Of a stretch of 15,871 nucleotides of DNA, positions 270-15,871 are shown piece by piece. The position numbers and the translations under genes were made by a program. Origin of the DNA: Promethearchaeota archaeon. Lineage in GTDB: Archaea > Asgardarchaeota > Lokiarchaeia > Sigyniarchaeales > SOKP01. The notes below the pieces were generated by a model that searched no databases, had not been told where the DNA came from, and saw only the letters and a list, made by a program, of their open reading frames with translations. Positions within the stretch are counted from its first letter, which is position 1. Each line of letters begins with the position of its first letter. The stretch covers positions 1 through 15,871 of the forward strand of contig JAFGGO010000030.1 in assembly GCA_016930515.1 (NCBI GenBank), read 5' to 3'.

Positions 270-1136
270 TTAATCTGTTATCTTTCTTATTCGCACTATT
301 TTTTCCGAGACGGTAATAAATCCTTCCTTTTCTAATTGTGTTAGGATTTGTAAAATTTTACTCTCGTCGACATTAAGTCTTGCGGCCAGTCCCCTCTGTG
401 ATTCTCCGGAAACCGAAAGGAGGTGTTTCAGGATTTTTCCCCGCAATTGCCTGTTGGATCCCTTAAAGGGGATTTGCTTCTTGTAATGTGCGCTCTGCTT
501 ATTCAATTCCGGGTGTTTTTTTTTCAGCATGACCCCGTAATCCATGAGTGCGTAATACCATTTCCTGCTGTCTTTCTCGTCCAAAGTAGCTTCTATCAAG
601 GGAATAATTTCCTTATCTTGCACCGTCAGCTTTCTAGGAAAGAAAAAATAAAGATATACCCGTCGTATGTTCGTTTCGATGAAAATTACGGGTTTATTAA
701 ACGCAAAAGCAATTATCGACGAGGCAGTGTTGTGGCCAATATTGGGTAATTTTTTCAGCGTTTCGACCGTGCTTGGCAGCTTCCCTCCGTGATCGTTTAA
801 AATAATGCCTGCAATTTTTTTTAGAGCGATCGCTCGGCGATTGTATCCTAACCCTTGCCAGCTCTTTAGAACATTCTCTAAAGGCGCTTTCGAAAGCGAT
901 TCAAAATCAGGGAATTGGGCGGTAAATTGCAAGAATTTCTCGGCCACCCTTCCGGTCTGGGTTTGCTGGAGCATCATTTCGGAAACGACCACGTTGTAAG
1001 GCGTGATGTTGCTCCGAAAGGGAAAATTCCTACCATGCCGCTTGAAATAGGACTTGATGATCTTTTGGAAGACTTCTATGACTTGAGCACTAAGTCCTTC
1101 TTTATTGTAAAGGGCATGAAATTGCGATACGAACAT
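270..1136 (-). CDS. HhH-GPD DNA glycosylase, MutY-like catalytic domain, no Fe-S cluster, with a C-terminal winged-helix-like tail
   Basis: 288-aa ORF with ATG start and TAA stop. It carries the MutY-type motifs VSEMMLQQTQ (catalytic Glu helix), WQGLGYNRRA, the helix-hairpin-helix/GPD loop LPNIGHNTASS (no EndoIII-type Lys) and YALMDYG (catalytic Asp context). The protein has no cysteine at all, so the usual C-x6-C-x2-C-x5-C 4Fe-4S loop is absent. The last ~60 aa (RGKILKHLL...LTQLEKEGFITV) look like a wHTH rather than a NUDIX domain. Confidence 0.8.
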   Translation of the reverse strand: MFVSQFHALYNKEGLSAQVIEVFQKIIKSYFKRHGRNFPFRSNITPYNVVVSEMMLQQTQTGRVAEKFLQFTAQFPDFESLSKAPLENVLKSWQGLGYNRRAIALKKIAGIILNDHGGKLPSTVETLKKLPNIGHNTASSIIAFAFNKPVIFIETNIRRVYLYFFFPRKLTVQDKEIIPLIEATLDEKDSRKWYYALMDYGVMLKKKHPELNKQSAHYKKQIPFKGSNRQLRGKILKHLLSVSGESQRGLAARLNVDESKILQILTQLEKEGFITVSEKIVRIRKITD

Positions 1137-1249: not shown

Positions 1250-2278
1250 TTATAAAATCTTGGAGGTTGCATATTGCATATTGATCCCTCGAATAAAAAG
1301 CAACTTGGGAGGTTTTATGGGCGTTTTGTGAACCTCGCACTGATCGCGTTCTTTATAGTATTGGTCACATTCACTACAGTAAAAATTTTGCCTTGCTTGA
1401 TGTCTTAATGCTCGTGCTAATACCTCACTTGAGTTCAACAAGCTTCCAAAAGTTTCGGCGTCGATATTGGAAACAATCTCATCGAACTTGCAACTATCAC
1501 ATGTGATTGTTAGCTTTAATATCACGAACACGAGCTTGCGAGGACTTTTCCGGACGAGATCGAGCAAGAGAGATTTGCACCTCAAGTTCTGATCCCCGCA
1601 TTTACTACACGCCTCCTTGTTGGTTGGGGAGCTATCCCCGATGGAATGCCCTTGCAAGGGCTTCTTCTTAGCGTCGTCTAAGGTGTCCTCAAATATTTTT
1701 CTCATTTCAAGAATGTCATGTAATCTATCTTTTAGACATCTTCTTTCTTGATGTGTTACTGAGCGAGCGTGTAGTTCTTTATTTATTTCTTCTTCAAGGA
1801 GTCTTTTTTCTTTTGAATTAAATATAATGGTGATGGTTTTAATTCGTTGGTTCTCAGGTGCAGGTGATGAGATCAATTTCGATTGCGAATTCAATGCAAC
1901 TTCGTTTTTCACGACATTGCTCCTAATTGGGCGGCCTAAAATTTCCTCCATTAACTTCCTGAATGCATTTACGAATTCAGAGTGAATGTTAAACGCATTT
2001 CCGCTTAATTCAAGAGTCTCAACTTTCGTTAAAAGGTGTATCGAGTTTGGCAGTGAATATAAATTTTTGTCCTTTAACCACAGCCCGGTCACGTGCCTGT
2101 CTTTCGCTGTAAATCCAAAAATGGCATTCCCAGGATTTGACTCCGCTAGGATCGGAATTGACTGACCAAGCATTACTTCCAAGGCCACGAGAAATTGTAC
2201 CTCTTCGAGGACCAATTTCACTTCCTGATAGAAAGCTACTTTATCCCCAACCTTGTTTCTATCGTTGTTCGAGAACAT
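1250..2278 (-). CDS. hypothetical protein with N-terminal leucine-rich-repeat-like segment and C-terminal multi-CxxC zinc-ribbon region
   Basis: 342-aa ORF that starts 10 nt downstream of the stop of the HerA-like gene on the same strand, suggesting an operon. It has an LRR-like stretch HVTGLWLKDKNLYSLPNSIHLLTKVETLELSGNAF. The C-terminal half has Cys pairs CSKCGDQNLRC, CDSC and CSECDQYYKERDQC. I recognise no enzymatic motif. Confidence 0.5.
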   Translation of the reverse strand: MFSNNDRNKVGDKVAFYQEVKLVLEEVQFLVALEVMLGQSIPILAESNPGNAIFGFTAKDRHVTGLWLKDKNLYSLPNSIHLLTKVETLELSGNAFNIHSEFVNAFRKLMEEILGRPIRSNVVKNEVALNSQSKLISSPAPENQRIKTITIIFNSKEKRLLEEEINKELHARSVTHQERRCLKDRLHDILEMRKIFEDTLDDAKKKPLQGHSIGDSSPTNKEACSKCGDQNLRCKSLLLDLVRKSPRKLVFVILKLTITCDSCKFDEIVSNIDAETFGSLLNSSEVLARALRHQARQNFYCSECDQYYKERDQCEVHKTPIKPPKLLFIRGINMQYATSKIL

Positions 2279-2288
2279 CTTCTTCTCT

Positions 2289-5200
2289 CTAAGGTTTATT
2301 TTCGCTATTGTCTTGACTTAAAAGAATGTCTGAAAACTCTTGCTTTAAAAGCGTTGCGAGTCGTCCCGTGGTGTCCGTAGTACTTAATCCCTTAGCCCGT
2401 TCGAATAATTCGTGTAACTTATTCGTTTTTTCTAAAATCTTCGCCTCGATCTGCATGTTGAGGATTGGAATTTTCACACTGATGTCTTGATTTACCTGAT
2501 CATTACATTTCGGACAACGCGCCTTGGAAGCAGCAGACGAACGAAATACCTTGGGACAATTCGAACAGAAAACATAATTAGCGTGAAAGCCTCGAAGTCG
2601 TTCCCATAACTTGTCCGAAAAGTTTTGAACAGCAAAGCATGCTTTTTTAGAGGGAAACTTAATTTTCTCGATTGTTCCCTCTCGATTAATCGATATTTCA
2701 GAGATGATAAACGAATATTCGTTGGAGTCTTTCTGTCCACTTATCTGATAATGCAGCTGTTCGATGACTCCTTTATTGCAACTTTTATTTTCGAGTTCCT
2801 CGTCCCTAATCTCATCTTTCACGCCCCAATCTTTTGGTTTTACTAGATCCATTACGACTAAAAAAGGCTGGTCGTATTGTTCCAACTTAATGACGCACTC
2901 TCCAGGAGCAAGGCGGGTCACGTGTCCAAGATTCTCGGCGGATAAACCCAAAGAATCTCGAAAGTCTTCGATTTGATATCTTGAGGGTATCTTGTGGCAT
3001 ATCTTAAGCTCGGTGTTCGTGATCGCAACTTGATTGAGCTGTCGAGGTTTTTGCTCCGATATGATAAACCCTTCTCCGTAAGCGCGAATTTCGGCCAGAA
3101 TGTCGCTGAAATCCTCTTGCGACTTGTGTGCGATGCTATCTTTGGACCTATCTGAAATCCTCGCCGATGATAGAAGCCTGTGCGCCTCTTCTAATACCGT
3201 AATATGTCTCAAGGAGGTGGAAGGTTTATTTTGTTGTTGGTAAAGGTACAATAACCTCACGATGTAATTAAAAACTAGCGCTCTTTCTTCGTTGTTTCTG
3301 AGACTATCAAGTTCCAAGATGACATTTTTTTTTAAGATTCGATCGATGTTTGGATGATTTTTTGACGAATTAAAGATTTGTCCTCTCGTACCCTTGAGTA
3401 GCGAGCCAAATCTCGCCTCAAACGCTCCCAAGAAACCGTCCTTCGTGCGGTAGTCATAACTCGAGAATCGAATTTTCAAGACGGTATACTTGAAAAAATC
3501 TTCCAAGGTTGGCGTTCTTCCCCTCTTAATTTCGGTCCAGCCGTTTACCTGATAAATTTCAACCAGAGAGGTATAAATGACATCCCTAAAAGGGTACCAG
3601 ATGTAAAAGGTGTTCGAAATTACCTCAAGAAGCTCGTTTACCCATTGAGTATAATTCAAAAAGCGTGGAACTTCAAAAAGGTTAATCTTCAATCTATTCG
3701 TGGCTGCTCCAGCGGAATATACTTCCACGTTCTTGAAGTGATTGAGCACGTGACGATATTCTTTTTTAATGGGTTCCACGACTAGGAAGGGAATCTTTTT
3801 TTCTCGTGATTTCATCAAAATATTAAGGACGGTATTGGTCTTACCAGATCCCGTTGATCCTATGACTAAACAATGTCGGGTAAGAGAATCCAAATCCAGG
3901 TAAAAATCTTCTACCACGTCACTTCCTCGCTTAATGCGACCGATCCGAAGGGGATTTGCCATTTTATTTACCGCCATCTCTGGAAGTTCTTCGGAGAAAT
4001 CAGGGATCTTAAGAACTTTAAAATTCGAAATCGATCTTGTCGGTAAATTGATGTGATCGCCTAACCTGTGCGAGGAATAAATGGTTCGATATGGCTTAAA
4101 CTCGGAAGAGGCTTCCAAGCCCGTGCCCAAGGTCGTAACTGCCTTGAAGGACTTGGGAAACCAATTCAACGGCTCGCCAAGTTGAAATGCATCGACGGGA
4201 AACCAAAAATCGCCTTGGTTCTTAAAATGGGATTTGATGATGGCGTAGATGGTATAATAAGTGCTTTTTTTATCGGCAAAAATATAATTGAACGTGTCCC
4301 AGAGGCCGTGTGTTGCATTTTCTCTTATATATTTATTAATTAATCCGATTTTTTTGATCGCTCTGAATTTTGCGTGCCTCATCGTAAACTCTCTAGTCTT
4401 TTCCGTGTTATCTATTTCGTTGAAATAAAACTCCTCGTCTGGCGTGATTATTGCGTCTAATACATCCTTCAAGTCGGAAAGAATGACCTTGATCCGTTCC
4501 TGATTCAGGCTTTCACCTATTGTAAGAAATCCCCATTTTTGCTTGTTGAGAGCGTTGTTAATCTCGGAAAGGACACTGTTTGTAATAGTCTCCGTTGCGT
4601 GACCTGTTAAGCAACCATAAATTCCTCTATTCTCCACGAACTCAAGGATATCCTCGTGCTCTTGTTGGTTCAAGAACGATATCTTCAGGTTTGGAAAACC
4701 CGAAACCAGTACTTTCTTGAACAAATCGAACTGCTCTTGAAGCGACTTAAGAACATCTTTAGGATTGTTGCCAGAATGTAAAATTCCCAAATAGAATCGA
4801 AAACCTTTCTTGTCGTTTAGCAATATTCGAATTATCTTGCATCCGAAATAATTAAGCGCTTCGAGCATGTTCCTCATAAAAATGTGCCGTCCTTTCACGT
4901 TATCCTCGTTTTTTAAACTTAAACCGTCAATTCTTAAGAGTTTTACGTATTCGAACTTTATTCCGCTTTCTTCAGGGTTTTTTAGCTCTATCACATCATT
5001 GAAGGCATGTTTGGTAGTGAGCACGGCTTCTGCAAGCATTTTTGAATCTACGAGCGCCTCGAGCTCCTCCCGAACTGGGGCGTTGGAGTGATCCAAAGAA
5101 TTCAAAAGCAATTTCTCGTACGAGAGTTCTTTCTCACCGGGTACGGTCTCTTGGCGTTTCTTTAAGGTGTTTTCTAATGCAAAATGTATCAATTCTCCTG

Positions 5201-6023: not shown

Positions 6024-7268
6024 CTATTGGTTAAACACAGCAACTAGATTAGTGAAAAAGGCTATTGAATCGCTAAAACTGCAAGACATTGAGATTGAAT
6101 CGATTTTATCTAAAATAACTTTTAAATGATTGTTTAAGTTTTGGGATTTGTTGCCAAGCCGATTAATTTTTTCGCTCGTCGTAAAGACATGTGCATAGTC
6201 ATTTCTCTCAACCGAGAGAGAATTAACTTCTCCAAACAAGCTTGATTCGTTTATACCGTGTTCATTAGTGCTGGTTGCAAATCGAAACCTCCTAAAAAGT
6301 TCGTCGGACCTTTCCCTCTGAGCGGTATCGAGTGGATCAAGATCTAATATATCCTCACATAACCAAGATATGAAACTCTCTCGAACCAATCCAAGAGATG
6401 TTGAAAAATCCATTTTTCGAGTTAAGAGCAATCTTGCTAAATTCAATTGTCTCTTCCATAATTTCTTTATTTCATCGTTCTCTCCAAATATTTCTTTTTT
6501 TATCGTCTCGAGTTCAGGAATGATGCCTTGATAAAACGAGTTGCGATAAAAATCATCGTATTCTTTAAAAATATTTTGGGGTTTTCTCGTAAAATGATCG
6601 CTGCTCAAAAAGCGGTTTAATTTTCCCAATAATTCATCGCTCGCAACTCCTGAATTAAGGAATAGCATGATTTTTTGTAGTTCTAAAACTACATTTCTTA
6701 ACGCTTTTACCTTGCTTTTTGCCCATTCAAACGCAGAAATATCTAAGTTTTCTATCAAAAGCTTGATGTGAGATATCTCGTGTTGGAGCATTACTAATTG
6801 ATCGAGTTGTACGAATTTTGAGGTAGTATTAGGACCACGAGAGATTGCGTAATAAATCTTTTCGAGAATGTTTGAAGAAACATTTTCGAAGTAATAGACA
6901 AACGAAAAAAGCAAGCTTTGAAATAATCTAAATCCAAGAGTAATATCGATGATGACGGAGGAATGATTAATATTTCCTAAAACGGTAGTTAGCTTGTTTA
7001 AAAAAAGCCATATGTCCTTTTCTTCCTTGATCTCTGAAATTTCGTATGGTACAATTTTGCATGAGGACGAAGAAGCTTCTTCTAGGATTTGTTTAACTGG
7101 TTCTCGCTGCTTGAATCTCTCAGGAGGAGGATCGGGGATCGACCAACCGTTAAAGGTTTGCTTCCCTTCGGGCGTGTCGGGATAAAAAACGATTATCTGG
7201 GATAAGCTTGTTTTCTCGACTTCGTCTAAGTACTTTACGAGAGCATATGTAGAACACCAATGATTCAC
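6024..7268 (-). CDS. csx1: Csx1/Csm6-family CARF-HEPN ribonuclease; the ORF as tracked starts at GTG and lacks the first CARF strand, and may be disrupted
   Basis: The HEPN R-x4-H motif ERNDYAH (RNDYAH encoded at 6189-6206) sits in the C-terminal domain. The CARF loop motif is VIIDITLGFR. Length and architecture fit Csx1. The N-terminal strand KVLITVLGNS is encoded in frame upstream of the tracked start (see the next feature). Confidence 0.8.
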   Translation of the reverse strand: MNHWCSTYALVKYLDEVEKTSLSQIIVFYPDTPEGKQTFNGWSIPDPPPERFKQREPVKQILEEASSSSCKIVPYEISEIKEEKDIWLFLNKLTTVLGNINHSSVIIDITLGFRLFQSLLFSFVYYFENVSSNILEKIYYAISRGPNTTSKFVQLDQLVMLQHEISHIKLLIENLDISAFEWAKSKVKALRNVVLELQKIMLFLNSGVASDELLGKLNRFLSSDHFTRKPQNIFKEYDDFYRNSFYQGIIPELETIKKEIFGENDEIKKLWKRQLNLARLLLTRKMDFSTSLGLVRESFISWLCEDILDLDPLDTAQRERSDELFRRFRFATSTNEHGINESSLFGEVNSLSVERNDYAHVFTTSEKINRLGNKSQNLNNHLKVILDKIDSISMSCSFSDSIAFFTNLVAVFNQ

Positions 7269-7403
7269 GGAAAAACTCTCGTGAGAATCGGCTACATCAA
7301 AAGAATAAGTCGTGTCGTAATAAAATTGCGAATTGCCTAAAACCGTGATTAAAACTTTTTCTCGTTCTCGCTCTTCGTGTTGCTCTTCTTGTTATTCGTT
7401 CAT
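7269..7403 (-). other. in-frame 5' extension of csx1 encoding CARF strand beta-1, interrupted by a TAA at codon 4
   Basis: The minus strand reads ATG(7403-7401) AAC GAA TAA(7394-7392) CAA GAA GAG ... AAA GTT TTA ATC ACG GTT TTA GGC. This translates as MNE*QEEQHEEREREKVLITVLGNSQFYYDTTYSFDVADSHESFS and is continuous with the tracked ORF. There is no ATG, GTG or TTG between the TAA and the GTG at 7268. Confidence 0.7.
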
Positions 7404-7537
7404 TTCTATCACTGCTGCGGATCATTAGTCGATCGTATAAAAGTGTTTCTTTATATTTTTGAAACAAAGAAAAATTAAGTCTGCATGATTTCATGACAAA
7501 GATTTATAGCCTCGTTGTTGCGATTGTTAAGAAGGAT

Positions 7538-8176
7538 TTAAAGCCATAATACCTTCTTTCCACTGAAATACATTCGCTTCAAACCGTATTTATCGCTCAA
7601 TTCTCGAAGGGCAAGAGAAACGGGCTTCGTTCCTCCCGTTAGTTCGCAGATGATTTCAAACTCGTTGATATTTTCTATTATGAGGTCTTCAAGGTTTGAA
7701 AGCACTTCTGGATAATTTTCTCGCAAGATTTCTTGAAAATTCACGGCTTTAACTTCCGTTTTCACGGATTTAAACTTCCCTTTATCGAACTTCTTAAAGT
7801 CCTTGCTCAATTCAGGACTTGTGAGAAGGAGGTACTTCTTTGGCAGGATGCTTATATCTTCTAACGCAGCGAGCACGGCAGTAAAGAGATCCAGTTGGCC
7901 AAGACCTCCGATCAAGCATATTGGTACGATTTCCTGGAATAAAGACCTGAGAGGTTGAATACTCGTCTCGTTTATCTTGTAATATCCTCTTTTTTTAATT
8001 CTCTTGAGCAGTCCAGCGTCAACTAGTTTTTTCAGGTGAAAATCGGGTCGTGAAGTATCGTTGCGGACGTGATCCTTTATTTGCTCGTAATAAAGCGCCT
8101 TGCGTTCTGATAAGAAATAGAACATGATTTTCTTTCGATTAGGATTTTCCAATGCTTCGTTTAAATTACCTGACAC
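7538..8176 (-). CDS. wHTH-CARF protein, a putative cOA-responsive transcription regulator with Csa3-like logic but reversed domain order
   Basis: 212 aa. The N-terminus is an ArsR-type winged helix (NPNRKKIMFYFLSERKALYYEQIKDHV...HLKKLVDAGLLKRIKKRGYYKINE). The C-terminus is a CARF-like Rossmann unit with ICLIGGLG (strand 1 and Gly loop) and the ligand-loop motif EIICELTGGTKPVSLAL. GTG start. Confidence 0.7.
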   Translation of the reverse strand: MSGNLNEALENPNRKKIMFYFLSERKALYYEQIKDHVRNDTSRPDFHLKKLVDAGLLKRIKKRGYYKINETSIQPLRSLFQEIVPICLIGGLGQLDLFTAVLAALEDISILPKKYLLLTSPELSKDFKKFDKGKFKSVKTEVKAVNFQEILRENYPEVLSNLEDLIIENINEFEIICELTGGTKPVSLALRELSDKYGLKRMYFSGKKVLWL

Positions 8177-8444
8177 GACCGTATACCGTTTTAAAAGTTC
8201 ACTCGAAATGATTGTCGGAGCGGTAAACTTTAAGGCTCCGTTATTTTAATCTCATTATCTCACAATAGAAGGACCTTATTTAAATAATTATCGACTTTGC
8301 AGAGTAGATGGTACCTTCTTTGCGTTTATGTATATAAATATCACAATAAATATAAACCTTTTATGAAAATTTTGTATAATTCCAAGCCTTAAAAAAAAAT
8401 AAATTCTTATTTGAAATAGAACGATAAACCAACCCGAATGATTC

Positions 8445-8873
8445 ATGCTAGATAATGATGTTTTTTCTGAACTGAAGGATAAAAATAACACGTGTATGTT
8501 AGGTGGTCTGGGGGATGTTGAACTTTTTGTTGATTTATTGGATGCTCTCGAGCGAGATTACGGAATCGTTCCTAAAAAATATGTGCTTATTACTAGCCCT
8601 GAAATACACGAAAAATTTAAAAAAGGAGATCTAAATCTTGATAAGGTACGCAGCGAAATTTACGAGTTTGACTTTCAAACAGTTTTAAGAGAAGATATCC
8701 AGAAACTCAAGATCGTTTTTAAGGATATTATTGATAAAATTGAGAAAAACCACGAGATCATCTGCGACATCACGGGAGGGACTAAACCCGTATCTATTGC
8801 TTTAATGTCTATTGCAACTGAAAAAAAATTGCTTAAAATTTACTTTAGCGGACGGCATTTTATAAAGATATAG
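8445..8873 (+). CDS. stand-alone minimal CARF-domain protein, paralog of the CARF half of the 7538-8176 product
   Basis: 142 aa. It aligns along its whole length with residues ~85-212 of the neighbouring wHTH-CARF protein. Shared blocks are GGLG, PKKY.L.TSPE, FKK, LRE, EIIC.(I/L)TGGTKPVS.AL and YFSG, about 35-45 percent identity by eye. It has no DNA-binding or effector domain. An alternative start at the internal Met (MLGGLG) is possible. Confidence 0.65.
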   Translation: MLDNDVFSELKDKNNTCMLGGLGDVELFVDLLDALERDYGIVPKKYVLITSPEIHEKFKKGDLNLDKVRSEIYEFDFQTVLREDIQKLKIVFKDIIDKIEKNHEIICDITGGTKPVSIALMSIATEKKLLKIYFSGRHFIKI

Positions 8874-9095
8874 TATATTTCAAAATTACATGCGATATTG
8901 CAAGATTTAAATAAGGTGAAAATAATCCTCTTCAATAACTTGGATAATATTATCATTTAAATATTAGAATAAGGGAAAAATTTTGGATCCTAAAAAAATT
9001 TTCATAACTACAATAAGAATATATAGTTATAAAATACTGGATAAAAATATAACCACATAAATTAAAAGATATAAATCTAAATGGTTAATTAACTC

Positions 9096-11201
9096 ATGAT
9101 AACTTGGATAACTACGGTCGGATGGAGCCCGTTTGCCGTCATTAATCCCATCTGGGCGTATTGTAAGGATAAAGGGCGATTTCCCTCACGAATAAAGCTA
9201 TTGCACACCTCGCATATTAAGATTTTGGAAAACTTAGATATCTGCAAGAAAAATATTTTTAAAATCTTAAAATCTTATTCGAACGATCGGAATTTTCAAC
9301 CGCAAATCGATTCCTGCCCAGTGAAAAGCGAAGATATTGAAATATATACCGAAGCTCTCAAGGATGTTGTCAATTCGGTCATCAAGTTAGGAGACTCGGA
9401 ATTGATCATTCTCGACATGACGCCTGGAAGGAAATACATGTCGGCTAAAGTCATGCATGTGGGCGAGCAGGTAAATTCAATAGAAAATCCTGTTCAAGTT
9501 TTTTACCTCGCCTTGGAAGACTTGACTTACATGAATTCGACATATCCGACAATACCCTTATTTACTCAGGGCCTCAACAACATCTTGGAAGACGCCGATT
9601 TCCAGATGCAAACGCCTCCAGATCCCCAGGTACAACTGAACGATCTGATCAATCAAGTACTTAACACTAATTCGTTAAGAATGATAAACAATCCCGAAAA
9701 ACAACTGGAAATATTCGTACTTTCTGCTCTCGCTCTTGGATACGATACAATCACGAGGTTAAGCAGGTTTGCCAGGGAAAATCACCTAAATTACAATAGA
9801 AACGATATTAATAACACGGTAAGAAGGCTCGGAATCATGGAAGGATATCTTTACGAGAGCGTGCGAATTTCAAACGACACAACAGTAGACATCATCATCG
9901 TTACTCCTGAAGGTATCGAATATTTAAGAGAGATCCTTGAAGAACTTCTCACCGATCATCCTCCAGAAGCCCTTGTTAACGTGAATCGTCAGCCTCACAC
10001 GAGTCTTGACGAATTGAGTCTGCAAAACATCTACATGCAAGCCGAAAATAAAAATAAGAAATACATCGATTTAGAAGTAGACAAGCTCGTCGTTTTTCTG
10101 AACGAACTTTACTCTCATAACCTTAGAACCTTTCACGTGGTCGATTGTTATTATGGTATCAACTTGTTAAGGGTTGATCTCGAGCTAGGCAAGGACGAAA
10201 TCAATCTCCGATTTGAAAATTCCCTTAGATCCCTCCCGGATAAAAAAGGGCAAAAAAAATGTCTTGAAGATCTGCGTAGGAATGTTTCAAACATTCCGGG
10301 CATCGTGTTCAAGGAAATACCCTATAAAAACCAATTTCTGGACGCGATACGAAAATCTGGAGTGTTTTTTAACGAGACCTGCATGGAACAATTCAAGCAG
10401 AAACTCGATCAAATCGTCAATTCAAACCCGATTAGAGGCGATAGGTATAAAGTGTTTAGTTTCGACACGTGTACCTTTTCGAACCAGACTTTCTCTCATC
10501 TCTACAAATATTACACGAGCCACCCGATTTACGGTAATAAAATCAACCGATTAGACTTTTTGGTTTCAAAAGGAGTTATTGACGAATTATCCGATTTTGA
10601 AAACAAGTATGGAAATAAAGAATTTCACGATTTTCTCGACTACTTGACCAAGATCGCCTCTTTCCCAAAGATCGTGGAACAATTTAAAAATCAAAGCACG
10701 CTTCAAGCGAGATTAACCAAGTTAGGGCGATGCGACTACTTGAAGACGAAATCGCTTGCAAACGTGAGAGAGATAGAGATTGGTGGTGAAGAGTCCCTCC
10801 ACATGGACAGTCGCATCATTAGTGGCCTGCAAACCGAAGTTCAACGATTAAATAATATTGATTTATACTTGTGCTCGCACGACGATAACTTTTACGGTCG
10901 CGCAACAGGATTTGCGGGCGTTTCACCTCACTTATTTCTATACAAAAACGTACTTCACAAGAAAGAACAAAATTTCTCGATTAAAACAAGCTGGGACACT
11001 TTTTCAAGAATCCTCTATTATTTAGCAGTTACCTTCGGAGCTATCATACTAAACGTTGACAGTAAAGACAAGTTCGTGTTATTTGGAACTTGGCCTGGAC
11101 ATAAAACCCAAGATTGGCAACGGGAACGCACGCGGATCTATTCGGAGAATTCGATCCTGAAAAACATGGTTCGAGATATGAAAATTATCAATTCAGACTA
11201 A
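9096..11201 (+). CDS. CARF-wHTH-(unknown)-PIN-like multidomain protein, a candidate cOA-regulated nuclease
   Basis: 701 aa. Residues 1-~165 carry a Csm6/NE0113-type CARF signature (ITTVGWSPFAVINPIWAY and ILDMTPGRKYMS). Residues ~200-285 look like a MarR/Csa3-type wHTH (EIFVLSALALGYDTITRLSRFA...NNTVRRLGIMEGYLYE). Residues ~450-612 have acidic residues in PIN order and context: VFSFD(457)TCTF, GVIDE(497)LSDF, SLHMD(571)SRIISGL and LYLCSHDD(596/597)NFYG. Residues ~300-450 and ~615-701 are unassigned. Confidence 0.7.
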   Translation: MITWITTVGWSPFAVINPIWAYCKDKGRFPSRIKLLHTSHIKILENLDICKKNIFKILKSYSNDRNFQPQIDSCPVKSEDIEIYTEALKDVVNSVIKLGDSELIILDMTPGRKYMSAKVMHVGEQVNSIENPVQVFYLALEDLTYMNSTYPTIPLFTQGLNNILEDADFQMQTPPDPQVQLNDLINQVLNTNSLRMINNPEKQLEIFVLSALALGYDTITRLSRFARENHLNYNRNDINNTVRRLGIMEGYLYESVRISNDTTVDIIIVTPEGIEYLREILEELLTDHPPEALVNVNRQPHTSLDELSLQNIYMQAENKNKKYIDLEVDKLVVFLNELYSHNLRTFHVVDCYYGINLLRVDLELGKDEINLRFENSLRSLPDKKGQKKCLEDLRRNVSNIPGIVFKEIPYKNQFLDAIRKSGVFFNETCMEQFKQKLDQIVNSNPIRGDRYKVFSFDTCTFSNQTFSHLYKYYTSHPIYGNKINRLDFLVSKGVIDELSDFENKYGNKEFHDFLDYLTKIASFPKIVEQFKNQSTLQARLTKLGRCDYLKTKSLANVREIEIGGEESLHMDSRIISGLQTEVQRLNNIDLYLCSHDDNFYGRATGFAGVSPHLFLYKNVLHKKEQNFSIKTSWDTFSRILYYLAVTFGAIILNVDSKDKFVLFGTWPGHKTQDWQRERTRIYSENSILKNMVRDMKIINSD

Positions 11202-11255: not shown

Positions 11256-11558
11256 TTATTTGATCCTTTTTAAAATACCCATTTGATGTTCTTCTGCCAG
11301 CATTTCTTCAATGTTTAAAATCTTTCCCTCGGGAGGTCGATTTTTTAAGCGAAATACCAGCGCTATTTGGCTCGGCTTCATTTTTACCTGTATTCTATTC
11401 GCTTTAATCGGCGTGTTGAGAATAACAGATAGTATTTCTGCCGTTGATTCGTGTCCTACTGCCGAGATTGCTTTCGAAAGGTCTAATGTCATCTTGCTTT
11501 CGTCGAATTCGAAAAACTCGTAGGTACCATAATCCGTGAGGATGGCTGCGTTTAACAC
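11256..11558 (-). CDS. crn2: DUF1874-family ring nuclease (Crn2 / AcrIII-1-like, cA4-degrading)
   Basis: 100 aa with a GTG start. It is collinear with my recollection of the STIV B116 / SIRV1 gp29 family: LNAAIL..., the catalytic-His block SAVGHESTAEILSVIL, then NRIQVKM, ALVFRLKNRPPEGKIL. Size and motif order match the family. Confidence 0.8.
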   Translation of the reverse strand: MLNAAILTDYGTYEFFEFDESKMTLDLSKAISAVGHESTAEILSVILNTPIKANRIQVKMKPSQIALVFRLKNRPPEGKILNIEEMLAEEHQMGILKRIK

Positions 11559-12853: not shown

Positions 12854-13894
12854 ATGGAATTCGTCGTCAGGGAGTTTCAAGAAGAAATATCAAGAGCCTC
12901 GAAGAATAGGAACATGAAGAAGACAAATAAACTCATGAAAGAGCTCGTTCGATCCCCTGAGGCCAAGCTCCTTGCCATCTACAAGATTACCCAAAAAAAC
13001 AAGGGCAAGCATACAGCAGGAAACGACGGCAAGAAATACGAAACGACCGCAGCAAGAATGGACTTGTTTAAAAGGCGTTTTGATTATAGGTGGTACAGGT
13101 TTAATAAAATTCTCGTGAGAGAGATTCCAAAAAAAAACAAAGATAGGAATCGAAAGAAATTTGACGGTAATAACGTCGTAAAAAAGCGCAAGTTAGGAAT
13201 CATGACCCTGAAGGATAGGGTGATGACCAAGATCGTTAGTTTTGCGCTCGTGGCAAAATGGGAACCTTTTCTCGAGTCGAACGTGATGGGCTATCGCGAG
13301 GGAAAGAGTGTTCAAGATTGCATCCATTTGGCCTGCAAGGAGCTGACAAAGGGCAATAAAATCGTATTAGACGCCGATATCAAGAACTTTTTCGAAAACA
13401 TCAATCACGAGGCAGTTTTAAAACACCTGCAGGTGTTTCGAAGGTTTGTCAAGCGCTTGTTAAAAATAAAAGTTGCAACGCCACACAAGAGAGCTCGTAA
13501 AAATCGCAGGGGTATTGTCCAAGGGAGCCCTCTCAGTCCCGTGCTCTCGAACATCGCTTTACACGGCATGCAAGATCTGTTTGACACGCAATTAATCGGA
13601 AATAAACTCGTTAAAGCCGGATCGAAGGTTTCAGTGATCAGATATGCCGACGACTTCGTGGTGTTCGCACCTTCGAGACACGCCATTGAGTCCTGGGTCT
13701 TGCCTAAGATAAAGGATTTCCTGGAACATCGCGGTCTTTCTCTCAACATAGAAAAGACGAAAATCGTCACCAAGGAAGAAGGGTTCACGTTTTTAGGGTA
13801 CACGATCAAGCAAGAAGGCAAGGACCTGTTAGTGTTCCCGGAGAAAAATCCGAAAGCGCGACGGGCAAAAGAAATAATACACCTTGCACTATAG
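12854..13894 (+). CDS. group-II-intron-like reverse transcriptase, CRISPR adaptation-associated, not fused to Cas1, no thumb/X domain
   Basis: 346 aa with RT motifs in order: KGKHTAGNDG, RKLGIMTLKDRVMTKIV, VLDADIKNFFENINHE, RGIVQGSPLSPVLSNIALHGM, IRYADDFVVF, LNIEKTKIV and FTFLGY. The protein stops ~27 aa after FLGY. Homology to group II RT N-termini (W..INW) continues in frame upstream of the ATG to about 12824. Confidence 0.9.
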   Translation: MEFVVREFQEEISRASKNRNMKKTNKLMKELVRSPEAKLLAIYKITQKNKGKHTAGNDGKKYETTAARMDLFKRRFDYRWYRFNKILVREIPKKNKDRNRKKFDGNNVVKKRKLGIMTLKDRVMTKIVSFALVAKWEPFLESNVMGYREGKSVQDCIHLACKELTKGNKIVLDADIKNFFENINHEAVLKHLQVFRRFVKRLLKIKVATPHKRARKNRRGIVQGSPLSPVLSNIALHGMQDLFDTQLIGNKLVKAGSKVSVIRYADDFVVFAPSRHAIESWVLPKIKDFLEHRGLSLNIEKTKIVTKEEGFTFLGYTIKQEGKDLLVFPEKNPKARRAKEIIHLAL

Positions 13895-13938
13895 CGATTT
13901 CAATTGATTAACAAGAGAGTGGAGCGCGAGAAATAACC

Positions 13939-14217
13939 GTGTACATCGTGGCCTACGACATTACTGATAACAAGCGATTGAGAGAGGTCGCAAACACTTG
14001 CCTGCAATACCTCTCGCGGGTTCAAAAGTCCGTGTTCGAGGGAGATTTGACGCCGAGCCAATTGCATTCGCTAAAAAAAGAATTGAAGTCGATCATGGAC
14101 GATAAAACGGATTCCATCTTGTTTTATTTTTTAAAAAATTCCTCAATAAAAAAAAGAATCGTGCTTGGAAAGAGGAAAAACGACCCGTTTTTCATAAAAG
14201 AAGGGGACGAATCGTAA
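13939..14217 (+). CDS. cas2: CRISPR-associated endoribonuclease Cas2
   Basis: 92 aa with a GTG start. It has the canonical Cas2 N-terminus MYIVAYDITDNKRLREV with catalytic Asp, then RVQKSVFEGDLT and DSILFYFL. Confidence 0.9.
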   Translation: MYIVAYDITDNKRLREVANTCLQYLSRVQKSVFEGDLTPSQLHSLKKELKSIMDDKTDSILFYFLKNSSIKKRIVLGKRKNDPFFIKEGDES

Positions 14218-14294
14218 AAGCGTAAAGGATTAGAAATTAAGTGACATGTGAACAAACAAAAAAATTTGAATTCGAAGGGAGAGAGAGATAAAAG

Positions 14295-15305
14295 ATGCAA
14301 AAAACGCTTTACATAACGAGCTCGAAGTTTGAATTGAAAAAGGAAAACGACACGATCAAATACGAGCGAGCAGATCCCGATAACGCGGGAAAAAACATCA
14401 CGCAGGTAATTCCCGTGATGCAACTAGCGTCTATCGAAACCTATGGGAACGTGAAGATCAGCACGCCCCTGTTAAAGCTCTGCAACGAGCTGGGAATACC
14501 CTGCTTTTTTAACACTTATCGAGGGCATCCCATAGGGAAATTCGTGCCCGAAAGACCGAAACCAAGCATCGTGCGGCTCAAGCAGTTCGAAACCCATCTT
14601 GACGAGGAGAGAAAGCTCCACATTGCCAAGGCGATCGTTAGAAAAGCCTGCGAAGAACGGATAAAACTCGTAAATAAATACGACGAGAAGGGAAGCTTGA
14701 AAAAAATTACAGGAGAAATTTCTTCTTTTTTGAAAAAGACTGCGAGCGCCAAAACCACGAACCAACTTCGAGGATTTGAGGGAAACGCCATGAAGGCGTT
14801 TTTCGAGGCTTTTTCAAAAATTCTCAAGCACTTGTCCTTTAACGGCAGGTCCACGCAACCGCCCAAGGACGAGGCGAACGCCCTAATTAGCTTCGGGAAT
14901 GTGATGCTGTACAACAAGGTGCGAGCCGTTCTTTATCGAACCTCGCTCGATCCGTTAGTGGGATTCTTGCACGAACCTCACGAGAATCGAAACTCTCTTG
15001 CGCTTGATATGGCCGAGATCTTCCGTCCAATAACCGTGGATGCCACGATCTTAATGCTCGATCGAAAAAGAAATATTACTTCAGAACATTTTAAGCACGA
15101 TAAAATAAAATGCTTATTAAATCCTGCGGGTAAGCACATATGGATAGAGACATTCAGAAATAAATTAGAATCGTCTTTCGATTACAAACCGCTTAAAAGA
15201 AAGGTTTCTATACAAGAACAAATCAAGATTGAATGCTTTAATCTCATTAAATATTTCAATCGGGAAAAAAGTAATTACGCACCAATTGAATTTAATACCT
15301 TGTAA
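14295..15305 (+). CDS. cas1: CRISPR-associated integrase Cas1
   Basis: 336 aa. Cas1 motifs are LRGFEGNAMKAFF (catalytic Glu), PPKDEANALISFGNVMLY and DPLVGFLHEPHENRNSLALDMAEIFRP (catalytic His and Asp/Glu). A GGGAGAGAGAG purine tract lies upstream of the ATG. Confidence 0.95.
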   Translation: MQKTLYITSSKFELKKENDTIKYERADPDNAGKNITQVIPVMQLASIETYGNVKISTPLLKLCNELGIPCFFNTYRGHPIGKFVPERPKPSIVRLKQFETHLDEERKLHIAKAIVRKACEERIKLVNKYDEKGSLKKITGEISSFLKKTASAKTTNQLRGFEGNAMKAFFEAFSKILKHLSFNGRSTQPPKDEANALISFGNVMLYNKVRAVLYRTSLDPLVGFLHEPHENRNSLALDMAEIFRPITVDATILMLDRKRNITSEHFKHDKIKCLLNPAGKHIWIETFRNKLESSFDYKPLKRKVSIQEQIKIECFNLIKYFNREKSNYAPIEFNTL

Positions 15306-15319
15306 AAATAGAGGATTCT

Positions 15320-15871
15320 TTGAAAATGTTCACGCACGATTACATCGAACCCCATCAAGTCAACTCCTTCGTCTATTGTCGCCGCAAGTGGTATTATCAA
15401 AATCGATTGAAATTAAGACTTGAACGCGATAACTTAATTTTAGGACAAAAAATTCACCAAGAGCACAAGTTAACTCGATATAAATATAAGGAACTATACA
15501 TGACTTCGGAACAGTTAAAATTGAAAGGAATGTGCGATTACGTCATCGAAGATGAGGGAGTTCTCGTTCCCTTGGAACTTAAAATCGGAAAGTCTAACAA
15601 TGGCAGGCCTTTCGAAAACGATATCGCTCAACTGGTTTGTTACATTCTCTTGTTAGAAGATTACCTTAAAAGTCCCCTGACCCACGGATATCTCCTCTAT
15701 CTTGGATCGCGACAAAAATTAAAAATTAAATGCGATAAAAAAGCAAGATCCGAATTATTCACGATAATTAAATCGATTCGAGAACAAGTTCGCTTGAATA
15801 AAATACCTAAGCTCCCTCAAACCAACGATAGATGCAAGAATTGTTCATTTTTTGACTATTGCTGGTATTAA
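15320..15871 (+). CDS. cas4: CRISPR-associated RecB-like exonuclease Cas4 (Fe-S cluster type)
   Basis: Cys in VYCRRKWYY plus the C-terminal CKNCSFFDYC gives the four-Cys cluster. The nuclease motifs are CDYV...PLELKIGK (D...ExK) and QLVCYILLL (QxxxY). The tracked start is TTG at 15320. ATG at 15326 (MFTHDY) is an equally plausible start, downstream of AGAGGA. The TAA stop occupies the last 3 nt of the window. Confidence 0.9.
   Translation: MKMFTHDYIEPHQVNSFVYCRRKWYYQNRLKLRLERDNLILGQKIHQEHKLTRYKYKELYMTSEQLKLKGMCDYVIEDEGVLVPLELKIGKSNNGRPFENDIAQLVCYILLLEDYLKSPLTHGYLLYLGSRQKLKIKCDKKARSELFTIIKSIREQVRLNKIPKLPQTNDRCKNCSFFDYCWY

Follow-up and report, generated by a model that had tools for sequence, protein, structure and literature searches.

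Relation of the locus to described CARF proteins

Type III CRISPR signalling depends on cyclic oligoadenylates (cOA) being made, sensed and removed. Among the described sensors, the CRISPR-associated Csa3, in which one CARF domain is joined to one winged helix-turn-helix (wHTH), controls cas and related genes in response to cyclic tetra-adenylate (cA4) (PMC8844856, PMC8699464), which it binds with no ring-nuclease activity (PMC8844856). The same two domains occur in a 212-residue protein encoded by the DNA studied here, contig JAFGGO010000030.1 (assembly GCA_016930515.1) of a Promethearchaeota archaeon; the whole stretch of 15,871 nucleotides, referred to below as the window, forms an island of type III CRISPR accessory and adaptation genes. 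Facing away from the gene for this wHTH-CARF protein (the long protein, or long form) is a gene encoding a 142-residue protein made of a lone CARF domain (the mini-CARF, or short form). According to our analysis, there is about an even chance that the two products, both members of the CARF_m5 family, act in this island as a cA4-responsive auto-repressor and as a free cA4 buffer or slow ring nuclease.

Csa3 (6w11) is matched in fold, yet the CARF domain described here lies nearer to those of Card1 and Can2. Csa3 also differs in having the opposite domain order and in its motif I, T-Phi-G-F-(D/N)-E, where both proteins described here have GGLG, and with 12.9 and 17.2 bits the matches to the Csa3 profile TIGR01884 stay far below its cut-off of 60.2. 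By analogy, the long protein would work like Csa3, without being a member of the Csa3 family. A long and a short protein sharing one messenger within one genome are known from Sulfolobus, in the form of Sis0811/Sso1393 (CARF-wHTH) and Sis0455/Sso2081 (CARF only) (PMC9638899). The Crn1 ring nucleases have in common with our proteins the Lys of motif II and the CARF fold, with a template-modelling (TM) score of about 0.55-0.61; their long forms, however, carry the wHTH at the C-terminal instead of the N-terminal end, and they belong to a different CARF branch. Both in sequence and in structure, the mini-CARF is matched best by Card1 and Can2 (PF23400, 'CARF4'), effectors which carry a fused PD-(D/E)xK nuclease that is missing here, and Card1 has Ser11 where the present proteins show a Gly-rich loop.

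The role that we propose for the mini-CARF is comparable to that of Csx15, a small CRISPR-associated protein which has no effector domain and damps cA4, some members only sequestering it (PMC13148439), and which co-occurs with other ring nucleases. Csx15 is nevertheless an unrelated branch, since the mini-CARF has no match to the Csx15 profile and retains the full six strands in its model, whereas characterised Csx15 has lost one CARF strand and forms dimers that stack head to tail into filaments. Eight families of extrinsic ring nucleases are recognised, namely Crn1-4, Csx15, Csx16, Csx20 and AcrIII-2 (PMC13148439), and the mini-CARF belongs to none of them.

Two CARF_m5 proteins encoded by divergent genes

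The first-pass annotation of the window, made by a model from the nucleotide letters, had described a divergent pair of paralogs, in which a CARF regulator with an N-terminal wHTH, the reverse of the Csa3 arrangement, lies back to back with a copy of its CARF half with no output domain. Much of this description was borne out. A check of the open reading frames (ORFs) returned the same coordinates for both genes (Table 1), and these diverge across a spacer which is AT-rich with respect to the whole window (29.5% versus 38.8% GC). In a BLASTP comparison, the match extends over residues 87-207 of the long product and 17-137 of the mini-CARF, hence the entire CARF half, with 54/122 identities (44%), 69% positives and an E value of 9e-33, and the only unaligned part of the short protein is its first 16 residues. 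The blocks GGLG, PKKY.L.TSPE, EIIC.(L/I)TGGTKPVS.AL and YFSG, quoted in the annotation as shared, are all present in both paralogs. The longest inverted repeat of the window (7611-7657 with 8754-8800; 47 nt, 81% complementary) arises from the coding regions of the TGGTKP motif, which the two paralogs carry in opposite orientation, and does not represent a regulatory hairpin.

The long protein matches the PADLOC profile PDLC01987 (CARF_m5--CARF) with an E value of 6.2e-42, residues 8-212 covering positions 5-195 of 195. Because this existing profile spans the full length of the protein, the reversed wHTH-CARF layout is not new and is already catalogued, under a label that follows the CARF classification of Makarova et al. 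2020; a full-text literature search for 'CARF_m5' returned no description of an N-terminal wHTH, an operator, a wHTH-less subclade or experiments. The start of the long protein agrees with that of homologs beginning MSS..E.L.NPNR. In its AlphaFold2 model, like that of the mini-CARF single-chain and built on family alignments, the wHTH is followed by a linker helix and then by the six-stranded CARF domain; the predicted local distance difference test (pLDDT) is 93.9 and the predicted TM score (pTM) 0.88. The wHTH comprises helices 12-24, 30-36 and 44-53 and a beta-wing at residues 57-68; its N-terminal position and ArsR-like character are consistent with profile matches below cut-off to HTH_5 (E 0.0023) and HTH_metalloreg (E 9.6e-5), with PDB profile matches to Lmo1102 and ArsR, and with a Foldseek match of the N-terminus to the ArsR-family repressor SqrR (6o8o). 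The residues P85, S109, I170 and W211, whose conservation is specific to long forms, probably contact the wHTH or the linker. The CARF domain finds Card1, Can2 and Csm6 in Foldseek and scores 21.9 bits against Pfam PF23400 (CARF_Card1), just under the gathering score of 24.6.

The mini-CARF is above that gathering score, with 33.8 bits, and PF23400 matches are precomputed on several homologs. Against the PADLOC CARF_m5 profile it covers positions 71-195 only (E 2.2e-27), so that the wHTH part (1-70) is missing; no degraded wHTH precedes the gene, for a tblastn search of the spacer with the wHTH was negative and numerous stop codons interrupt the mini-CARF frame ahead of its ATG. In the model (pLDDT 91.8, pTM 0.86), about 15 disordered residues precede a full six-stranded CARF domain, for which Foldseek returns Card1 as the best match (TM 0.68-0.69, E 3e-06, about 21% identity). 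The top PDB fold matches of both proteins are all CARF, i.e., Card1, Cam1, Cdn1, Can2, Csm6, Cad1, Crn1/Sso2081, Sis0811, Sis0455 and Csa3, in line with the fold that the first-pass annotation had assumed. Neither protein extends beyond the CARF domain, apart from the wHTH of the long form, and neither contains a PD-(D/E)xK nuclease.

Table 1. Features of the window, with the recurrent three-gene module of the relatives' loci (numbered L) in the last line
Feature	Position	Strand	Remarks
MutY/HhH-GPD glycosylase fused to C-terminal wHTH (HTH_24/MarR-like)	270-1136	-	Unusual fusion at island edge
342-aa protein, no assigned function	1250-2278	-	
HerA-like ATPase, 1097 aa	2289-5582	-	First ~500 residues match nothing
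Csx1 (CARF-HEPN effector)	6024-7268	-	PADLOC Csx1/Csm6, E 1e-19
orf65 (65 aa)	7297-7494	-	No family match
wHTH-CARF gene	7538-8176	-	212 aa, GTG start; CARF_m5 family; putative cOA-responsive transcription factor
CARF domain of long protein (residues 85-212)	7541-7924	-	Mini-CARF alignment; Card1 CARF profile and fold matches
ArsR-like wHTH and linker helix (residues 1-80)	7937-8176	-	AlphaFold2 secondary structure; HTH_5, HTH_metalloreg, SqrR, Lmo1102 and ArsR matches
AT-rich divergent promoter spacer	8177-8444		268 bp, 29.5% GC
Putative operator GTGAGATAATGAGAT	8249-8263	-	Tandem ATGAGAT-like repeat, period 8
TATA-like box TTTAAATA	8277-8284	-	13 bp upstream of operator; presumed function
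mini-CARF gene	8445-8873	+	142 aa, ATG start; lone six-stranded CARF, disordered 15-residue N-terminus
CARF_m1-PIN-like protein, 701 aa	9096-11201	+	PADLOC PDLC01973, E 5.8e-43; 222 bp downstream of mini-CARF
DUF1874/STIV B116-like protein (Crn2/AcrIII-1 ring-nuclease family)	11256-11558	-	Pfam PF08960, E 5.6e-21; PDB AFV3-109, STIV B116, 6scf
Tandem-duplicated Csx15-like protein, 319 aa	11701-12660	-	NCBIfam CAS_Csx15, E 2.8e-16
Reverse transcriptase, Cas2, Cas1, Cas4	12854-15871	+	
Csx1-like 449-aa protein/PHP/mini-CARF module	L001 3368-4884; L011 3943-7592; L029 5894-9649; L033 7320-10432; L034 468-3580		

Ligand pocket and ring-nuclease signatures

The pocket motifs GGLG, KY, TSP, LRE, TGGTK and YxSG are common to both classes, so that long and short forms should bind the same ligand. 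The company of Csx1, Can1/2-like proteins, Crn2 and Csx15 points to cA4, to which Csx1, Crn2 and Csx15 are linked (PMC12409355, PMC13148439). In the alignment to Card1, TGGTK corresponds to T98-K102 and TS to S38-T39, Ser120 of the long protein and Ser51 of the mini-CARF standing at T39. The CARF motif II after strand 4, which has the pattern [DN]x[ST]xxx[RK] of Makarova 2014, is present as E-L-T-G-G-T-K in the long protein and as D-I-T-G-G-T-K in the mini-CARF, with T, G, T and K invariant in 46 sequences. Its invariant Lys (K184 in the long protein, K114 in the mini-CARF) is equivalent to K102 of Card1 and K106 of Crn1 (PMC9638899).

Motif I is tied to catalysis in CARF ring nucleases (PMC8844856, PMC10018336), and within the Gly9-Thr10-Ser11 loop of Crn1 it is Ser11 that is required for cleavage (PMC10018336). 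In both classes the Ser/Thr at the end of strand 1 is missing: the sequence there, C-L-I-G-G-L-G, is hydroxyl-free, and its GGLG loop stands where the Crn1 loop sits, with no equivalent of Ser11. The position of Crn1 Arg105 is occupied by an invariant Thr, as in Card1 (T101), although long Crn1 forms are also without Arg105 (PMC9638899). The C-terminal helical lid of Crn1, with its Tyr133, is absent as well, the mini-CARF stopping 3 residues after its last strand (E139-141 of 142). At E <= 0.1, the NCBIfam Crn1 profile (NF040581) matches neither protein, and it gives a weak match only to the 701-residue neighbour. On these grounds, membership of the mini-CARF in Crn1 was rejected, and with it the Crn1-type ring nuclease that the first-pass annotation had offered as one option.

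Family apart, the mini-CARF might still be an efficient ring nuclease of the Crn1 kind, cutting cA4 rapidly to A2>P and serving as the main off-switch of the locus. The protein is a lone CARF domain encoded in a cA4-type locus, it keeps the K106 equivalent and is matched in structure by Sso2081 and Sis0455 (TM 0.55-0.61), the Sis0811/Sis0455 couple (PMC9638899) provides a precedent for long and short forms, and the gene fills the divergent slot which a DUF1874 gene holds in five of the relatives' loci (L007, L019, L021, L023 and L024). We regard this as decidedly unlikely, given the lack of a profile match and of Ser11, Arg105, lid and Tyr133, and given that the closest folds are those of Card1 and Can2, both reported not to cleave cA4 (PMC12409355). 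Furthermore, the copy in the window has Val and Tyr in place of the His47 and His73 that are conserved in the mini-CARF clade, and an intact DUF1874 gene is already there. A buffer is favoured over a fast nuclease by the GGLG loop, the Thr for Arg105, the missing lid, the non-cleaving nearest folds and the precedent of the Csx15 sponges.

Candidate operator and promoter in the spacer

The sole intergenic ATGAGA/TCTCAT hexamer of the window lies within GTGAGATAATGAGAT, the putative operator. An ATGAGA element is found upstream of nearly all long-form genes, as an inverted TCTCAT-N6-ATGAGA, as a tandem ATGAGAT-N-ATGAGAT or as both, and also in four further relatives, among them the window's closest homologs. 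Within the 150 nt preceding 15 non-redundant long-form genes, ATGAGA occurs at 7.6/kb, compared with 1.0/kb over 190 kb of loci, and the palindrome (<=1 mismatch) occurs 21 times in 230 kb as against 1.0 times (maximum 3) in shuffles. The succession of a TATA-like box such as TTTAAATA, a gap of about 10-13 bp and the operator is repeated in L004, L007 and L019.

In archaea, the TATA box has its centre about 26 nt ahead of the site where transcription begins. With this spacing, GTGAGATAATGAGAT would cover the start of the minus-strand transcript, where archaeal repressors block polymerase recruitment, and its position points to auto-repression of the wHTH-CARF/orf65/Csx1 transcript. These three genes lie on one strand with gaps of 43 and 28 bp, and are therefore probably transcribed together from the spacer. 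No terminator-like sites were found in 7400-9200, and a bacterial-type promoter/terminator scan of the spacer gave 7 sites versus 6.6 expected.

In the relatives, extra operator-like copies precede DUF1874, the reverse transcriptase and the type III effector operon. One such ATGAGA site lies in L019 just upstream of the homologous reverse transcriptase gene (3111-4211), which hints that the adaptation genes may fall within the wHTH-CARF regulon. Mini-CARF promoters, by contrast, do not carry the operator as a rule: it is missing upstream of the short-form genes of L001, L002, L003, L012, L027 and L034, and only the L011 cluster is preceded by it.

Distribution and selection of the CARF_m5 relatives

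For the long protein, a word-indexed search of 5.8 billion proteins returned 43 relatives, and for the mini-CARF it returned 8; a short-form profile, run exhaustively with HMMER over 1.84 billion cluster representatives, returned only 20 proteins at E <= 1e-3. The named matches, as well as all 11 loci from the GTDB species collection, belong to metagenome-assembled genomes (MAGs) of Promethearchaeota/Lokiarchaeia or to 'uncultured archaeon'. On these matches, the CARF_m5 relatives form a tiny family, confined to Asgard-type MAGs wherever the matches are named. The long form adjoins a Cas10/RAMP effector operon in L004 and L032, which ties the family to type III systems. A viral or anti-CRISPR origin of the mini-CARF is unsupported: no relatives were found in IMG/VR, PHROG gave no match, and BFVD gave generic Rossmann-like matches only.

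All eleven short forms (116-146 aa) fall into one clade when the CARF portion is analysed by neighbour-joining, with the copy of the window on the longest branch. Their ratio of non-synonymous to synonymous substitution rates (dN/dS) is 0.06-0.27 where dS is unsaturated, and class-specific substitutions are found in both the long and the short class. The short forms thus represent an old monophyletic lineage under purifying selection, and conservation of the mini-CARF ORF in relatives, on which the first-pass annotation had made its reading depend, is in fact observed.

The longest branch and the residues V47, Y73, LREDI and CDITGG at otherwise conserved positions speak for the window's mini-CARF being a decaying copy, drifting and functionless in this genome. 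Two relatives look damaged, L012/L013 by the lack of a canonical start codon and L029 by a frameshift. Such decay seems most improbable to us: the frame is intact and begins with ATG, the pocket motifs are all kept, the model is confident, and the proportion of non-synonymous differences to the other short forms (pN, 0.32-0.37) is far under that of synonymous ones (pS, 0.73-0.86). As for the damaged-looking genes, those of L012 (3821-4243) and L013 have an intact frame with no ATG, GTG or TTG before strand 1, and that of L029 (7175-7617) shows a one-base frameshift in a homopolymer run; these anomalies could stem from errors in the assembly, from the use of rare start codons or from genuine decay.

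Gene neighbourhoods of the short and long forms

When we surveyed the co-occurrence of the two forms, the long form was present on the same contig in only 4 of the 10 distinct short-form loci, so that the pair described by the first-pass annotation is not a conserved unit. The four are the window itself (divergent), L017, where the genes stand in tandem on the same strand with about 130-150 bp between them, and L011 and L033, where about 6 kb separates them. A conserved divergent arrangement was accordingly rejected, this layout being seen in the window only, and so was a recent local duplication, since the short forms are one old clade and the neighbours are no closer to each other than non-neighbours: the window's mini-CARF is 44% identical to the adjoining long protein and 38-48% identical to long forms generally. 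The 'pair' is composed of two separately evolving members of a small family which happen to adjoin here.

The same survey bears on the idea that the mini-CARF is a dominant-negative or tuning partner, which would form heterodimers with the long protein through its CARF domain; such dimers, with one wHTH, would bind the operator poorly and so affect the regulator itself and not the pool of messenger. CARF domains act as dimers (PMC10018336, PMC8844856), the two proteins share 44% identity and the same core motifs, and their genes adjoin in the window and in L017 and lie on the same contig in L011 and L033. We hold this to be rather unlikely: 6 of the 10 distinct short-form loci have no long form on the contig and place the mini-CARF beside other effectors, the short forms constitute one old clade and not locally matched copies, the window's copy resembles its neighbour no more than it does other long forms, and both classes carry substitutions of their own.

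The neighbours of the mini-CARF elsewhere are a Can1/2-like CARF4-PD-(D/E)xK protein in L002, HerA with the 342-aa protein in L003, CARF-PIN with DUF1874 in L012/L013, and Csx15 in L027. In L001, L011, L029 and L033/L034, the mini-CARF lies 137-294 bp after a PHP gene, beside a Csx1-like protein of 449 residues. The PHP phosphoesterase of this module has 324 residues and no PADLOC match, and the Csx1-like partner has a CARF1-type N-terminus; the PHP protein may be an unrecognised enzyme of the cOA pathway (e.g., one clearing linear oligoadenylates) or an effector.

The recurrence of this module in the loci just listed, and the adjacency of mini-CARF and HerA in L003, lend some weight to a detached sensor, i.e., a mini-CARF activating a separate enzyme, which would be the PHP protein in the relatives and CARF-PIN or the HerA-like protein in the window. 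This is, in our estimate, unlikely: there is no PHP gene in the window, the neighbours of the mini-CARF vary widely between loci, and the PHP enzyme might equally process linear oligoadenylate products. Moreover, we know of no CARF sensor that acts on a separate effector. The presence of the mini-CARF beside such varied cOA effectors and associated genes (Csx1-like with PHP, Can1/2-like, CARF-PIN with DUF1874, Csx15, HerA) is instead the pattern expected of a modulator acting at the level of the messenger.

The commonest divergent partner of the long form is the DUF1874 gene, in the five loci named above; in the window, the mini-CARF fills this slot and the DUF1874 gene lies 3 kb off. The DUF1874/B116-like gene also recurs in L026 and L012, and mostly diverges from wHTH-CARF with operator-like sites between. 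Crn2 was reported in only 7 of about 39,000 prokaryotic genomes (PMC12409355), and with this recurrence Asgard archaea may be an unrecognised cellular reservoir of Crn2.

Proposed control of cOA signalling

In the reading that we favour, the 212-residue protein would bind cOA, most likely cA4, through a CARF dimer, and would sit on the operator at 8249-8263, auto-repressing the wHTH-CARF/orf65/Csx1 transcript, with cOA altering its DNA binding. The 142-residue protein would be a free homodimeric binder of the same messenger, a sponge or at most a slow ring nuclease, whose buffering raises the cOA threshold for the regulator, Csx1 and CARF-PIN; it is not a recent duplicate of the regulator and is not obligatorily partnered with it. 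The analyses above show the paralogy, the folds, the membership in the family, the CRISPR context, the single clade, the purifying selection, and the enrichment and position of the operator; the identity of the ligand, the repression, the binder of the operator and the choice of buffering over cleavage are what we infer. Among the roles suggested by the first-pass annotation, which were a cOA sponge, a ring nuclease and a heterodimer partner, there is a mild lean to the buffer or slow nuclease, while the Crn1 type and the obligate heterodimer are disfavoured.

Several observations weigh against this reading. It is by association that we infer the wHTH-CARF protein to be the binder of the ATGAGA element. 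Control of the mini-CARF by the regulator is possible, but some 180 bp separate the operator from the start codon of the mini-CARF, and no copy is found at most short-form genes elsewhere. The locus already has DUF1874/Crn2 and Csx15-like genes, so that a third modulator looks redundant, and only about 4% of ring-nuclease-positive loci have more than one (PMC12409355). The recurrent adjacency of PHP and mini-CARF hints at another role for the latter. His47 and His73 of the mini-CARF clade could be catalytic, and the window's copy, with V47, Y73 and the longest branch, may behave unlike its clade. In addition, Card1 keeps Ser and Lys and yet does not cleave cA4 (PMC9638899), which means that ring-nuclease activity is not reliably predictable from CARF sequence.

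Should the favoured reading be true, it would offer a first handle on the control of cOA signalling in Asgard archaea, and perhaps one more family beside the eight extrinsic ones. A regulator and a free protein with one ligand pocket, together with a candidate operator, would make a compact system in which to follow the cOA threshold and the transcriptional versus the enzymatic response. If both proteins are ordinary cA4 binders, the value would lie mainly in annotation, by naming a small family and its operator.

A wider reading, which we put forward tentatively and with the odds against it, joins these elements into an Asgard-specific cA4 feedback circuit, in which the regulator would switch on the locus including the opposite cOA-removing gene, mostly DUF1874/Crn2 and here the mini-CARF. 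The mini-CARF clade would then be a ninth family of extrinsic cOA modulators, and where linked to PHP, the mini-CARF may supply cOA sensing to a new phosphoesterase made of two proteins, which either degrades cOA or is activated by it.

Other features of the island

Neither a CRISPR array nor an Rfam structured RNA was found within the window. Homologs of orf65 were found in none of the relatives' loci analysed, and this ORF may be spurious or a lineage-specific small protein. The HerA-like ATPase and the 342-aa protein encoded next to it recur together in the CRISPR-accessory loci L003, L004 and L026. The reverse transcriptase which precedes Cas2, Cas1 and Cas4 is stand-alone and group-II-intron-like. 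Finally, the Csx15-like protein is the result of an internal tandem duplication, its halves being 38% identical (E 1e-34), and is in effect a fused pseudo-dimer.

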